Positions 11,250 through 30,734 of a stretch of 30,734 bases of DNA are shown one piece after another. The position numbers and the translations under genes were made by a program. The notes below the pieces were generated by a model that saw only the letters and a program-made list of their open reading frames with translations, was not told the origin of the DNA and searched no databases. Origin of the DNA: a virus (lineage: Duplodnaviria; Heunggongvirae; Uroviricota; Caudoviricetes). Every line of letters starts with the position of its first letter. Position 1 is the stretch's first letter. Where the stretch lies: IMG/VR virus record IMGVR_UViG_2879765931_000001. One strand, written 5' to 3'.

Positions 11250-11578
11250 CAGTTCACCACCTGTTCAAAATCGGCCGTTACAGTCACCCATAACGCCCCC
11301 ACGCTTGCCGACCATTTACGACAAACCACCCTGATCAGTTTCCAGTCATAAGGTGGCGTCCACTGAAATGCGCGGACGCCACCGTGCCGTTCCAGAAAGG
11401 CTTTTAAAGATGGGTGTTCACCTTTACGAACACGTATCGTCACGCTGTAAGTCGACAACTGGTTATTCAGTCCCGCCGCACGACGCTGTTCATAACCATC
11501 GCCCAGCTTCACTGTCACCACTTTCGGCTCTGATACCACATTCATATCCGGGCGCACTTTCCAGTGAAACGTCTCCAT
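11249..11578 (-). CDS. M: Minor tail protein M
   Basis: 109 aa METFHWKVRPDMNVVSEPKVV..., matching lambda gpM; ATG confirmed at 11578. Confidence 0.9.
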   Translation of the reverse strand: METFHWKVRPDMNVVSEPKVVTVKLGDGYEQRRAAGLNNQLSTYSVTIRVRKGEHPSLKAFLERHGGVRAFQWTPPYDWKLIRVVCRKWSASVGALWVTVTADFEQVVN

Positions 11579-14317
11579 TACCGGTATGCTCCACTTAACC
11601 GGCCACCATCACGGGCCTGCTGTTGCATAAAGTCCGCGGCCGCTTTTTTCCCGAGGTCATAAACCACCTTCAGGGCAGCCGGACCTATCTGCCCGTTCGT
11701 GCCGTCGTTATTGATCTCAATGTTGTACTGCGGGGCAAACATCACCATGCCTGAACCACCAGTATCCGCCACAACCCCCAGCTTACCATCAGCACCGCGA
11801 CGCAGTGGCAGAATGGCTTCAGGTCCCGCTTCCCCCATCACACCCGCGCCTTTTGCAAAAGCAAAAAACGTCGGACGGTTAACCACCGTGCCACTGTAGC
11901 GACTCAAATCAGCAGACTGGTAAACACCGCCATCAGCATTAGTCGTGAAGCCGAATAAAGAACCGACGCCCTTTACCGCCTGCATCATGGCCATCTGTGC
12001 CATAATTCTGGCCATATCTGACAACAGGGAAGAGGTGAAGGATTTAAAATTCAGCTTACCGGTGGTACAGAATGTCGCCAGTGCATTACCGGCACTGCTG
12101 AATGCCACTGTAAACATCTGTTCTGCCGTTCCCGCCGCATTATCCGCATCCGCCGTAAAATTCTGAAACGCCCGCATGGCACCGTTTTTCCAGTCGCCCT
12201 GCGCCACTTCCAGTTCCTGCCAGTAGCGTTTGTTTTCATTCAGTTGTCGCTTCAGGCTCCCCTTCAGCACCTCCTCAGCCCTCCGGTAGTCCTCCGTCCC
12301 GTAAGTGCCTTTCTGGCGACTGTCATTCTCAAGCTGTTGCAACTGTTGCCGGTATTCCTGCCGGATGCGCAACTGTGCCTGGTAGCGCTGCCGCTGCTTA
12401 TCCCCCATACCTGCAGTGGCAATATCCAGATTGTGCTGCTCACGCAGTGCACGTTCTTTGTCTGCCAGCTGGCTGGTCAGCTGAACCGTTTTTTTTTCTC
12501 AGGTCGTTAAGCGCTGTCTGTTTCTGCAGCTCCTGCTGTTTCACATCCAGCAGCGTCAGCGCCTGAATCAGCTCATTCTTACGGGCCAGCACACTCTTTT
12601 CATCTGCCGTCAGCTTTTTCCCGTCCAGGTCGCTGATGCGCTGCTGCAGGGCCAGAAGCTGTTTATGCGCTTCAGTCATCCTTTCAGTGGCAATGCCTGC
12701 TGACTGTCTGGCAGCAGCAATCTGCCCTTCCACCTGTGCCTGCTGCTGACTGTACTGCAGCAATAACCGGGTGGCCTCATCATTACGGGTTGCCCGTGTA
12801 TTTTTCTTAATGGCTTTTTCGTAACGTTCATTTTCACGCTGTATCGCCGCATCCCTGACAGCCTGGTCGGCGTACTGCATGGCATTAATACGCGCAATTT
12901 CCCGCTGATGTCGTGCAGCTTCCGTTTCATTCATCCGGTTCAGCGCGGCATTTTCAGCATTCCGGCGTTTCTGTTGCTCCTGGTAATTCCGTTCTGCCTG
13001 CGCTTTTGCATCCTGCAAATCCTTCCGGCGTTTTTTCTCCTGAAGATCGTTAAGACGCTGCTGATCGTACTCCACCTGTGTGGAGGCGTTTGTCCACGGA
13101 TATTTTTTCGCGCGCTGAATTTTTTCCTGTAACGCATCAATCTGCGCATCCAGCGAGTCTTCACGACCAATATTCATGGCCGCATCCCAGAACTGCTTCC
13201 ACCAGTCAGACAAGGTTTGCAGCGTACTACCCAGCGCATTGAGATTATTATCAATATCAGATGTGCGTTTACCGGTTTCCTCTGCCAGCGCAGACATGGC
13301 GATCCGGGCCGCATCACTGGACCGCCCCTGCTCCCCAAGGACGCGTATCTGCTCAAGCTGAGTGGCATTCAAAAAATGCAGCGCATTGTCCAGCGCCTTC
13401 GCGGCATTTACAGGATCATCCTTCAGCCGCTTAAACTGATTTATGGTATCGCTGACCGACTGGCCAACCGATCGCTCCATCTGTGCGGCAGCTTTCGCCA
13501 CCATACCAATATCGTTTCCATGAAATGCCCCACTGCCCACCACCTGTGCCAGCGCACCGGCTGCCGCATGTTGCGTGATACCATTCCCGGATATGGCCCG
13601 GCTGAGTTTCCACAACTGCCCGACAGTGACACCGGCATAATGTCCCGTCAGCGCCAGCTGACGGTTAAATTTCTCGCCCTCCTTCCGGCCGTCATGCCAG
13701 GCTTTACCCAGACCCAGGACCGCCGCGACAAGTCCGCCAATAACGCCGCCAGTCATCATGCCTTTCGGCGACATCAGTGCGCCTGTCCATCCGGCACGGT
13801 TAGCCAGCGTTATCCCGGATCCCCTCAGCGCACCAAAATTGCCGCGCGCCATCTGACTGATTAACACCCCCAGCTCCCGCCGGGCTGCCGCACTTTTCAG
13901 CCCCAGCGAATGTGTGGCTTTTCCTGCCCGCTCCATTTTGCGGATATACACTTCTGCAGCACTGCTTACCCCCAGCTGAGCCGCCCTGGCCTGCGCCTGT
14001 TCCTCGCGCATTTTCTGATTCAGGGCATCCACGCGCAGACGGGTTTGTTCCACCTCACGGGCCATGCGTTCATGAGCCCGTGCATTCTTCTCCACCGTCT
14101 GCGCATGGGCTGATGCTGCTGTTGCAGCCGAAGAAGCCGCCTGCATTGTCTGCCGGGCCGCCTGAGTCTGACGCTCCATAAAACGCTGCATACGGGCAGA
14201 AGACCGTTCTGCATCGCTGGCTGCACCATTCAGAAGGTTTTTGATACGGGGAATTTCATTTTTAAACTCTGCCGCATCAATCCCCAAATCAATGACCAGG
14301 TTGGCTATCTGGTCCAT
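11578..14317 (-). pseudogene. H: Tail tape measure protein H, interrupted by a frameshift in a 9-nt homopolymer
   Basis: N-terminal ORF (12440-14347; likely ATG at 14317 with GGAGGTG RBS) and C-terminal ORF (11578-12408, ending ...GQIGPAALKVVYDLGKKAAADFMQQQARDGGRLSGAYR like lambda H) are in different frames; the switch is at plus 12489-12497 (T9 / A9 on the coding strand); removing one A restores a continuous reading frame. Confidence 0.82.
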
Positions 14318-15013
14318 AACGCACACCTCCGGAAATACCTTCCCCAAGATGCATCAGTTCTTCGTCCGTTCGCTCCGGTATCCCGTTCTCTTCCGGTAAA
14401 AGGCTGAAATCAGCCACCGCAGCATCGCTGCTGCCGGACACCATTCTCACGATCAATGCCTTCAGCGAGGCAAACTGCGCATCCATCCACACATCACTGA
14501 AGCTCTGCATCCGGAAATAATCGCCCCACTCACCAAGCTCAGTGGCCGACATATCCGACAGCATCCGCCGCCAGTCTGCCCGCCGGAACTCCCGGGCAAG
14601 CCGCATGACAAACTGCATTTCCCGCGTCAGGACTTTTCCGGCGTCAGCGCCTCATGATCATCATCCCCGGCATTCTCAATGGTCCCCATACCGCTCAGCG
14701 ACAGAACCCTCTCCGCCCCCGCGCCCAGCGCATCATACGACCATGTTGTCATAATGGATGCGCAAAGCGTCTCAACATCCTGAGACTGCTCAGCATTCCA
14801 CAGTGAGCGGGAAACCAGCCAGGCATTGATATCCATTCCCATACGCAGAAAAGCAATCTGTCGTTCAGCCTCCGGCAGTTCTCCCTCCTGTGCATCAAAC
14901 TTTGCCGTTCGCTGCTGAACAAACGTCAGATATTCAATTCTCTGCAGCCCGGACAGCTCACTGAGCACCACGGACTGTTTTTCATAATTAAACGTATCCT
15001 GTTTCAGAAACAT
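14289..15013 (-). CDS. T: Tail assembly chaperone G-T fusion (inferred -1 programmed frameshift near the 3' end of G; T frame 14289-14651)
   Basis: The T frame is open from 14651 and overlaps the last 8 codons of G; the only slip-prone stretch in the overlap is CCGGAAAAG, at the position where lambda has GGGAAAG; conserved G/T arrangement of lambdoid phages. Confidence 0.6.
14627..15013 (-). CDS. G: Tail assembly chaperone G
   Basis: MFLKQDTFNYEKQSVVLSELSGLQRIEYL... resembles lambda gpG; ATG at 15013. Confidence 0.85.
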   Translation of the reverse strand: MFLKQDTFNYEKQSVVLSELSGLQRIEYLTFVQQRTAKFDAQEGELPEAERQIAFLRMGMDINAWLVSRSLWNAEQSQDVETLCASIMTTWSYDALGAGAERVLSLSGMGTIENAGDDDHEALTPEKS

Positions 15014-17567: not shown

Positions 17568-18056
17568 ACCCGCTCCTGATTGAATGAAAAACGGGAGCAT
17601 TTAGCTCCCGCTCACGGATTATTTCACCTGCACCACCACAAACTCATCCGGATCCGGCAGCACCATCAGCGGCGCGGACTGCGTCATGGTGAATTCACGC
17701 GCCGGATCACCCACGGTCAGCCAGTGTTTCGGATAACGGGAAGACGCCACCACGCCTTCAGACAATGCCTGCGCATCCTGAATGGCACCGTAGCAACGAA
17801 TACCCTCTGCGGCCGTATTTCCCAGTACCAGTGTGCCGTCCGGCAGATAACGTTTTTCGGTACCGTCCTCTGCCACATAGGACGTTTTTGCCACCACGAT
17901 TGCCAGATCACCATAATACCCTTTGAAGGACACCACCGCCCCCAGGTCTTTCACTGCCGTTTCCAGCTGTGAATTTGAGCCACGACGGGTATCCAGTTTT
18001 TGGTAATGCTGCCAACTTACTGATTTAGTGTATGATGGTGATTTTAAGGTGCTTGC

Positions 18057-18332
18057 GTGGCTTCCATTTCCATCAGATGTCCTTCCTGCTCCGCTACTGA
18101 AGGCGTGGTGCGTAACGGCAAAAGCACTGCCGGACATCAGCGCTATCTCTGCTCTCATTGCCGTAAAACATGGCAACTACAGTTCACTTACACCGCCTCT
18201 CAGCCCGGTACGCACCAGAAAATCATTGATATGGCCATGAATGGCGTCGGATGTCGCGCCAGTGCACGCATTATGGGCGTTGGCCTCAACACGGTTTTAC
18301 GTCACTTAAAAAACTCAGGCCGCAGTCGGTAA
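18057..18332 (+). CDS. insA: IS1 InsA (transposition inhibitor / DNA-binding protein)
   Basis: 91 aa [43 protein letters not shown]... matches InsA. Confidence 0.92.
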
Positions 18333-18754
18333 CCTCGCGCATACAACCGGGCAGTGATGTGATTGTCTGCGCTGAAATGGACGAACATTGGGGCTACGTC
18401 GGTGCTAAATCACGTCAGCGCTGGCTGTTTTACGCGTATGACAGGATACGGAGGACGGTTGTGGCGCACGTCTTCGGGGAACGCACTCTGGCCACACTGG
18501 AGCGTCTTCTGAGCCTGCTGTCGGCCTTTGAGGTCGTGGTATGGATGACGGATGGCTGGCCGCTGTATGAATCACGCCTGAAGGGAAAGCTGCACGTTAT
18601 CAGCAAGCGTTACACTCAGCGCATTGAGCGACATAATCTGAATCTGAGACAACATCTGGCAAGGCTGGGACGGAAGTCACTGTCGTTCTCAAAATCGGTG
18701 GAGCTGCATGACAAGGTCATCGGGCATTATCTGAACATAAAACACTATCAGTAA
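18251..18754 (+). CDS. insB: IS1 InsB reading frame (expressed as InsAB' transposase via -1 frameshift at the A6C motif 18309-18315)
   Basis: InsB-like translation (...[33 protein letters not shown]...MTDGWPLYE...); TTAAAAAACTC slippery motif at the end of insA. Confidence 0.88.
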
Positions 18755-19480
18755 GTTGGAGTCATTACCCAGTTTTTCGCGGAACAGCTTAAAGCCATTC
18801 AGCAGACGCCAGACCTTACCATCCATAATGGCAATATTGATGGTGCCGGAAGCAAAATCACAGTACGCATCCAGATCATGCGTCGGATCAAAGGTATCGC
18901 GGTCCTGAGCGCTCCACTCCGTCCCTCCTGCCTGCGTAATGTTATTTCCCACCGACCGGCCAAAATCGACCTCAACAGTTTCAAACTGCTCTCCTTCCAT
19001 GGTGTATTTGCCATACAGCACGGCATTCACCGCCTGCATCTCTTCCACCTGGACAATGGCGTGCTCTTCCTGTTTGAGGTTATCGGTGATGATACGCAGG
19101 CGACGGTAAGCCGGGTCGTTCAGCTGGGCCGGATCTTCACCGGGAAGACGCTCCACCGCCTGCTGGTAATTAAATTCGTGTTTCGGCTTAACGTAGCCCG
19201 GGCGCAGTACACGAGTTTCACCGCCACGGTGACGCAACACCTTTCCTTCAACAACCGGGGAGACATAGGCCGCCACCGGCGTTTTTCCGGTAATTTTGTC
19301 CAGCATTACCTCTTCGGTATGGAAATTCACCGTACGGCGGAAAAACAGCTCCAGAAACAGCGCACGAAATTTAACTTTTTGTTCGGTATAACCGAGTAAC
19401 TGGCGGGTCGTAAACAATCCCATAAATCAGTTCCTTTCATTCAGAAATCAGTCAGGCTACCGCAGTGACCTGATAAAATG

Positions 19481-28382: not shown

Positions 28383-28672
28383 CGAAAATTCTTCTCTTTA
28401 ATTCCAGCGGCTCTGATAGCTTTCATTACTGCAATTACCGTTTTGTCCTTCCCATCCTCATGCCCCATCGCATAAGCACCTTCTTCACCATCTTTCCAAA
28501 AGTCGTCATTCGATTCGGGCCAGTCGATATCCAGTTCAATAGCTGCTCGCGATGCCTGCCATATCACCCAGGCAAACTCTTTTAATTCATCGTCTCCTGT
28601 GAACTGGCTTTTGTCTTTTGACCACCAGTTTTCAAACTGTCGGTAGCTATCGTTCACTTCCCTCTCCCCCAA
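28379..28672 (-). CDS. Hypothetical acidic 97-aa protein, translationally coupled to ninB
   Basis: ORF overlapping the ninB start by 4 nt; Trp/Asp-rich; no family recognised. Confidence 0.5.
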   Translation of the reverse strand: MGEREVNDSYRQFENWWSKDKSQFTGDDELKEFAWVIWQASRAAIELDIDWPESNDDFWKDGEEGAYAMGHEDGKDKTVIAVMKAIRAAGIKEKNFR

Positions 28673-28731
28673 ATAAAAAGGCCTGCGATTACCAGCAGGC
28701 CTGCTATTAGCTCAGTGATGTAGATGGTCAT

Positions 28732-28923
28732 TTAATACTCCGTCACGTTTTCCTGTCGCCACGCCTCGTCATATTCCGATTTCGGCATATTGGCGATGTA
28801 GCTATATGGCGATCCTGATTCAAGTTGCAGGAACTGGTGCGATTGCTCGTCAAGGAACAACGGAACACCACCTTCCCAACCTTCGCCGTTACGTTGTTTT
28901 TCAAGCATCAAAACAGATGCCGG
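28732..28923 (-). pseudogene. 5'-truncated ORF fragment abutting IS911
   Basis: The 68-codon track ORF begins inside the IS911 end; only the last ~63 codons are non-IS sequence; identity unknown. Confidence 0.3.
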
Positions 28924-28931
28924 TGAAGTGG

Positions 28932-30100
<1,169 letters not shown>

Positions 30101-30172
30101 TGGAGCACCTGTGTTGTTCTGAGGTGAGCATATCACCTCTGTTCAGGTGGCCAAATTCAGTGTGCCACTTCA

Positions 30173-30734
30173 AGCAAAATCAGAGGTAAGGAGATCAAGA
30201 CTTACGGCTGACGAATACCTGAAAATTTATCAAGCAGCAGAATCATCACCATGTTGGCTCAGACTTGCAATGGAACTGGCTGTTGTTACCGGGCAACGAG
30301 TTGGTGATTTATGCGAAATGAAGTGGTCTGATATCGTAGATGGATATCTTTATGTCGAGCAAAGCAAAACAGGCGTAAAAATTGCCATCCCTACAACATT
30401 GCATGTTGATGCTCTCGGGATATCAATGAAGGAAACACTTGATAAATGCAAAGAGATTCTTGGCGGAGAAACCATAATTGCATCTACTCGTCGTGAACCG
30501 CTTTCATCCGGCACAGTATCAAGGTATTTTATGCGCGCACGAAAAGCATCAGGTCTTTCCTTCGAAGGGGATCCACCTACCTTTCACGAGTTGCGCAGTT
30601 TGTCTGCAAGACTCTATGAGAAGCAGATAAGCGATAAGTTTGCTCAACATCTTCTCGGGCACAAGTCGGACACCATGGCATCACAGTATCGTGATGACAG
30701 AGGCAGGGAGTGGGACAAAATTGAAATCAAATAA
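30173..30734 (+). pseudogene. int: Lambda-type tyrosine integrase, 3' portion only (5' end replaced by IS911)
   Basis: From AKSEVRRSRLTADEYLKIYQAAESSPCWLRLAMELAVVTGQRVGDLCEMKW... to ...HELRSLSARLYEKQISDKFAQHLLGHKSDTMASQYRDDRGREWDKIEIK, essentially identical to my memory of the lambda Int C-terminal catalytic domain; homology begins exactly at the IS911 end. Confidence 0.85.

Follow-up and report, generated by a model that had tools for sequence, protein, structure and literature searches.

The closest described counterparts of the locus analyzed here are the named IS1 copies of Escherichia coli K-12 and the head gene cluster of phage lambda. IS1F of K-12 MG1655 (NC_000913.3, positions 4518472-4519239) is a 768-bp element in which insA and insB' are arranged around an A6C site, and its 23-nt ends read GGTAATGCTGCC... 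and ...GGAGTCATTACC. Its insB7 gene is annotated as a pseudogene, a reconstructed InsAB' fusion reaches only 162 aa, and the element has no flanking duplication. IS1A and IS1E represent the classical IS1 type, with ends that read GGTGATG... and ...CAATAAG.... IS1E is located in yrhA, where it forms a simple intragenic insertion with a 9-bp target duplication (GACATTAAA). In phage lambda, the major capsid gene E is uninterrupted and is found in the order D-E-FI, with the head genes Nu1, A, W, B and C located upstream.

Here we analyze a 30,734-nt stretch of DNA from a tailed virus record (IMGVR_UViG_2879765931_000001), hereafter called the window. We find, with high confidence, that its major capsid gene, which is of the lambda E type and belongs to an ipaH-carrying lambdoid prophage remnant, has been interrupted by one insertion of an IS1F-type element, and that this insertion is best read as part of the neutral decay of the prophage.

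An IS1F-type element with complete ends and transposase frames

We compared the inserted element to IS1 copies from K-12 and from other E. coli genomes. An earlier note, made from the same sequence, had described a complete 768-bp IS1, and alignment to reference copies bears this out. The element is an IS1F-type iso-IS1 on the plus strand (Table 1). It shares 99.1% nucleotide identity with K-12 IS1F, from which it differs at seven nucleotides, and 99.9% identity over positions 1-768 with E. coli copies annotated as 'IS1 family transposase'. IS1A and IS1E have the same length, organization and family, but share only 90.9% nucleotide identity with the window copy and deviate from it at two positions in their ends. 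Both 23-nt ends of the window copy are identical to those of K-12 IS1F, and thus align to IS1 termini as the note had supposed. On the plus strand, the left boundary reads ...GGGTATCCAGTTTTT/GGTAATGCTGCCAACTTACTGAT... and the right boundary ...ATCAGTAAGTTGGAGTCATTACC/CAGTTTTTCGCGG.... A repeat finder reports terminal arms of 23 nt each that are 87% complementary and separated by 722 nt, and the element therefore measures 768 bp. This is the only pair of IS1 ends in the whole window.

The coding part is organized as in K-12 IS1F. InsA contains a zinc ribbon (Pfam Zn_ribbon_InsA, E = 5.9e-20) and a helix-turn-helix domain (HTH_Tnp_IS1, E = 4.9e-30), and the insB' frame covers positions 1-131 of the 131-position DDE_Tnp_IS1 profile (E = 1.1e-73), with all three matches far over the curated cut-offs. 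A -1 shift at the A6C site would generate a 232-aa InsAB' protein, compared with the 162-aa fusion of K-12 IS1F. This reconstruction is identical to the fusion built likewise from an E. coli copy (L007), whose coding sequence is annotated by PGAP as a programmed-frameshift IS1 transposase with matching coordinates. The element thus has the features by which the IS1 family is recognized: a length of ~768 bp, imperfect terminal repeats of ~23 bp beginning with GGT, insA with an overlapping insB', an A6C site, a target duplication of 8 or 9 bp and high identity to reference copies. As far as can be read from its sequence, the window copy is intact in all of its coding and terminal parts. IS1 copies that cover at least 80% of the element are present in 4951 of 5426 complete E. 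coli genomes.

Table 1. Positions of the IS1 element, the capsid gene parts and other features in the window
Feature	Position	Strand	Description and basis
PBP-family protein, YbhB/YbcL kind	1-477	+	At the left window edge
ipaH-type type III effector gene	1060-2823	+	Intact; LRR_TTSS and NEL E3 ligase domains
Capsid gene, 3' part	17619-18001	-	Codons 216-342 and stop; ORF, Pfam
Left target duplication copy	17994-18001	.	8 bp, CAGTTTTT; sequence, repeats, excision, empty sites
IS1 element (IS1F-type iso-IS1)	18002-18769	+	768 bp; identity to IS1 copies
Left terminal inverted repeat (IRL)	18002-18024	+	GGTAATGCTGCCAACTTACTGAT; inverted-repeat finder; same as K-12 IS1F end
Promoter-like site	18009-18036		CTGCCA-16-TATGAT; overlaps IRL; consensus match alone
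insA	18057-18332	+	91 aa; zinc ribbon and helix-turn-helix; Pfam
insB' frame	18251-18754	+	Open; DDE catalytic domain; Pfam
A6C site	18308-18314	+	AAAAAAC; -1 programmed frameshift from insA to insB'; read from sequence
Right terminal inverted repeat (IRR)	18747-18769	+	ATCAGTAAGTTGGAGTCATTACC; inverted-repeat finder
Right target duplication copy	18770-18777	.	8 bp, CAGTTTTT; sequence, repeats, excision, empty sites
Capsid gene, 5' part	18770-19423	-	Codons 1-217 and two bases of codon 218; ORF, Pfam
Second IS1-capsid junction			GCAGCATTACC/AAAAACTGGATACC, in gene orientation
D-like decoration protein (HDPD)	19481-19828		Neighbor of the capsid gene
Deletion junction	20147-20155		Affected region ~19865-20240; 9-nt parental overlap, no IS sequence

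A lambda E-type capsid gene split by a simple insertion

The element is inserted in antisense orientation into a minus-strand gene. Its identification as the major capsid gene, already made in the earlier note, holds up: the ORFs found on the two sides of the insertion match Phage_cap_E at positions 1-217 (ORF 18689-19423) and 213-329 (ORF 17619-18176) of 329, and the restored protein matches the lambda capsid protein (PDB 7vi9) end to end (residues 1-341, E = 3.3e-138). Lambda gpE is thus a full-length homologue of the restored 342-aa protein, with a sequence identity of roughly 63%. The gene is flanked by a D-like decoration protein gene, and Packaging_FI is located directly downstream. This order matches D-E-FI in lambda and is also found in an annotated relative, the prophage of E. 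coli RMDEC332 (NZ_CM177021.1, locus L001). In contrast to lambda, E is split by IS1 in the window, and the upstream genes Nu1, A, W and B have been lost along with most of C.

The 5' part of the gene runs into IS1 and reaches a stop at position 18689. Its predicted product is a 244-aa chimera consisting of 217 capsid residues and of 26 IS1-encoded residues following the shared Leu-217. Outside IS1, the 3' part lacks a start codon, and its ORF begins within the element; the left duplication copy in this part repeats codons 216 and 217 together with two bases of codon 218. The extra 776 bp thus split the gene after codon 217 of 342 and leave no intact, expressible frame. The capsid gene is a pseudogene in the window genome, and the two fragments would be unable to form the capsid fold and to yield a functional protein.

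Excision of positions 18002-18777, which comprise the 768-bp element and one 8-bp duplication copy, restores a 1029-nt ORF of 342 codons. Across the join, the restored protein reads ...LFREKLDTRRGSNS..., which places the insertion between FREKL and DTRRGS, as described before. We compared the restored gene to uninterrupted genes in related loci. There are no differences over 1029 nt to five of them (L022, L023, L024, L028 and L029) and one nucleotide difference to each of five others (L001, L021, L025, L026 and L027). The empty sites in the compared relatives each contain a single GAAAAACTGGATACC. The flanks of the insertion share 99.86-99.98% identity with these relatives, and the alignment blocks meet directly at the site of insertion. 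In the collection, 2252 blocks contain the neighboring D protein, and all nine places shown carry an uninterrupted 342-codon capsid gene next to it. Seven complete E. coli genomes contain the gene in one piece, annotated as 'major capsid protein' and with 99.8-99.9% identity, and no two-piece version was found among the best 60 complete E. coli genome matches.

The same ipaH-carrying prophage is present in other Shigella genomes (AE005674.2 and CP000266.1, which we take to be S. flexneri 301 and 8401, and CP026765.1). These copies and the related, intact-looking RMDEC332 prophage share the gene order of the window, and their flanks are 99.9-100% identical to it. In contrast to the window, their capsid gene is uninterrupted and has 342 codons, and they keep the lysozyme, terminase, W, portal and protease genes, with the portal gene being frameshifted in the Shigella copies.

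The target duplication together with the empty site rebuilt with no mismatches therefore indicates a simple insertion without later rearrangement, in agreement with the earlier note. An alternative origin by recombination between two IS1 copies is ruled out by the matching duplication and by the perfect reconstruction of the empty site.

Other lesions and the order of events

We next consider the condition of the remaining prophage. A deletion has joined the lysozyme gene at codon ~18 to the S49 protease/scaffold gene, of which the last ~97 codons are left. The protease gene C resumes at codon ~405 in the window, with ~80% of the gene lost. The deleted stretch contained the lysozyme (endolysin), Rz, the small and large terminase subunits, W, the portal and most of the protease. 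With respect to the RMDEC332 prophage, the window jumps from position 19269 to position 11995 of that locus, corresponding to a loss of ~7.3 kb. Compared with the Shigella relatives, in which this interval holds IS3-family insertions, the loss amounts to ~10 kb by coordinate arithmetic. The deletion junction is found in only two other assemblies, ERR832466 and DRR016004. We considered an IS1-mediated adjacent deletion and rejected it: the junction is located 1.4 kb from the IS1 end, is free of IS sequence and lies where the two parental sequences overlap by 9 nt.

The tail genes carry lesions as well. The tape-measure gene is present as two minus-strand ORFs (12440-14347, 635 aa, and 11578-12408, 276 aa) and is shortened by an internal deletion when compared with RMDEC332. 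The gene for the tip attachment protein J consists of two overlapping minus-strand ORFs (6465-9203, 912 aa, and 5723-6490, 255 aa), pointing to a frameshift near residue 906. In the Shigella relatives, the portal gene (at about locus positions 876-2430) changes frame at around residues 325-331 in all six loci tested (L021 and L023-L027), and the capsid gene is intact in the same six. In four loci (L014, L015, L016 and L017), IS3-family insertions separate the lysis genes from the terminase gene.

In other samples (Logan assemblies; proteins P0002 and P0005), the capsid gene is truncated or shows an apparent frameshift after ...AVKDLG (~residue 236), resulting in products of 309 and 315 aa. These may be independent inactivations, consistent with relaxed selection, or short-read assembly errors.

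It could be argued that the IS1 insertion was the primary disabling event, possibly selected because it locks the ipaH prophage in the chromosome. Splitting the only major capsid gene would be enough to block head assembly, and the host would benefit from retention of the ipaH effector gene, which is intact in the window. However, six of six relatives in which the capsid gene is intact already have a frameshifted portal gene, and the prophage could thus not make heads there even though E contains no IS1. L015, L016 and L017 in addition carry IS3-family insertions, as does L014; together with the portal lesions, these show that the element was immobilized without any contribution from IS1. The insertion is also rare, with the chimera found on one contig compared to 2252 blocks for the D protein, and the larger deletion in the window genome has removed terminase, portal and endolysin. 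We therefore regard a primary role for IS1, whether selected or not, as improbable.

Parsimony rather suggests that the portal frameshift was present in the ancestor of the window, where the portal gene itself has since been deleted, and that IS1 landed in a gene no longer under selection. The insertion would then represent neutral decay and not the disabling event. Every contig with the deletion junction also fits the IS1 insertion, and either the deletion or the insertion may have come first. The earlier view that the insertion alone abolishes capsid formation remains reasonable in itself, but the insertion did not cause the death of the prophage. The point is moot because the window has lost the terminase and portal genes, along with most of protease/scaffold, by deletion and because the portal is frameshifted in the relatives.

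The target duplication is 8 bp long

The earlier note had left the duplication at 8 or 9 bp and had placed the insertion at 17993-18778. A flanking repeat is present and the site is right, but the 9-bp version (CCAGTTTTT) does not stand, and the span is one base too wide at each end. Including both duplication copies, it extends from 17994 to 18777. With the pair of positions fixed, an 8-bp flanking match would arise by chance with a probability of ~1.5e-5; excision provides the more powerful test.

The usual IS1 duplication is 9 bp long, and it is tempting to assume a canonical 9-bp duplication here, with an IS1 of 767 bp or with one base lost after insertion. CCAGTTTTT is found both at 17993-18001 and at 18769-18777; a sister copy of this isoform (L010) has a 9-bp duplication (CCATGTGTT), as has K-12 IS1E. 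The total extra DNA argues against this. Excision of 777 bp (768 + 9) yields a frameshifted capsid gene, and the extra DNA is therefore exactly 776 bp. In addition, four other copies of the isoform end in ...CATTACC, with T, G, A or C as the next base. Since ...CATTACC precedes unrelated flanks in these copies, the C at position 18769 is the normal terminus of IS1 itself. CCAGTTTTT thus only seems to be repeated because this last base of IS1 is the same as the base preceding the target. A 9-bp duplication would require an extra ad hoc event, and IS1 is documented to generate duplications of either 8 or 9 bp (PMC12428005). We consider the 9-bp reading very unlikely; as judged from the sequence, the duplication is 8 bp, compared with 9 bp for K-12 IS1E and none for K-12 IS1F, and the apparent ninth base is a coincidence.

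More far-reaching readings, by which the IS1F-type transposase would use an 8-nt target stagger systematically or the 244-aa chimera would be made and kept for its interference with head formation in superinfecting lambdoid phages, appear to us very doubtful. The 9-bp duplication of the same-isoform copy speaks against a systematic 8-nt stagger.

Distribution of the insertion

We searched for the insertion in other sequence collections. In an exact-protein index, the 244-aa chimeric product is found in one record, CP026871.1 (4.49 Mb), from which the window evidently derives. A contig from an independent short-read assembly, DRR016004 (L005), reads ...CGCGAAAAACTG/GGTAATGACTCCAACTTACTGAT at the same junction and extends 23 nt into IS1. 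A contig from ERR832466 ends two bases before the junction, and its last base is unlike that of the window. Both contigs also carry the nearby deletion junction. An exact scan of the GTDB species representatives, which do not include the window's genome, found no left junction, and we found no mention of CP026871, GCA_002950195, ERR832466 or DRR016004 in the literature. No further carrier turned up, and the insertion is thus confined to a small lineage, with CP026871.1 as its single complete genome alongside one or two short-read assemblies.

Repeated sequences are well known to cause misassembly, and IS1 is highly repeated in such genomes, but we give practically no credence to a repeat copy misplaced here during genome finishing, given that the DRR016004 assembly reads into the IS1 end across an identical junction, that a second assembly breaks two bases before it, and that an exact 8-bp duplication with a perfect empty site is unlike the product of a misjoin.

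Host and other features of the window

The ipaH gene is located beyond the tail fiber genes, where it appears as cargo. This placement is shared with the E. coli relative, and the Shigella loci compared end short of the region. A protein identical to the window IpaH is listed with the source names Shigella sonnei and 'MULTISPECIES [Enterobacteriaceae]', and other members of its protein cluster are named from S. flexneri and S. boydii. Together with the near-identity to loci such as those of S. flexneri 301 and 8401, these names and the ipaH gene itself point to Shigella, probably S. flexneri, as the host. The YbhB/YbcL-kind protein at the left end of the window suggests integration at a site resembling lambda attB. 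In contrast to the window, the E. coli relative has its prophage adjoining yecD and aspS.

Several further features were recorded. A 209-aa ORF (20273-20902, minus strand) is located between the holin and the lysozyme remnant. It has no Pfam match and is absent from the equivalent position in the RMDEC332 prophage. A protein identical to its product is found on at least 1000 contigs and is named 'MULTISPECIES: hypothetical protein [Shigella]'; the ORF may represent a moron gene. A cluster of tRNA genes (21414-21724, minus strand) encodes Gly-TCC, Thr-TGT, Arg-TCT and a tRNA with a CAT anticodon, which is assigned to Met by ARAGORN and corresponds to a tRNA-Ile in the annotated relative. At the right end, an IS3-family element (28932-30136, minus strand) contains an HTH_Tnp_1 orfA (29798-30136) and an rve orfB (28932-29771). 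It is adjoined by a phage integrase ORF (30147-30734, plus strand) that runs off the window end. Window positions 28400-28923 are absent from the alignment with L015, and this gap next to the IS3-family element indicates that IS content varies between strains.

Discussion

Our comparisons identify the interruption of the capsid gene as a single, simple IS1F-type insertion. The mechanism of IS1 transposition is well established, and we apply it here on the basis of the anatomy of the element. A -1 shift at the A6C site would yield the InsAB' transposase, which would bind both 23-nt terminal repeats and join them to a target cut with an 8-nt stagger. Gap repair would then copy CAGTTTTT onto both sides of the element. 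The outcome would be the observed one, a capsid gene divided after codon 217 with a 5' fragment that terminates after its 26 foreign residues.

The result is of use in annotation, where positions 17619-19423 are best described as a single IS-disrupted pseudogene rather than as a pair of short 'capsid' ORFs. Combined with the deletion junction close by, the junction ...CGCGAAAAACTG/GGTAATGACTCC... provides a lineage marker for a small group of carriers. Shigella chromosomes contain 229-348 IS each, among which IS1 is the most abundant and varies between strains (PMC7373316). The event reported here is of a type already known, routine genome decay that involves no new kind of element. Beyond annotation it carries little meaning, as one of hundreds of Shigella-type IS insertions.
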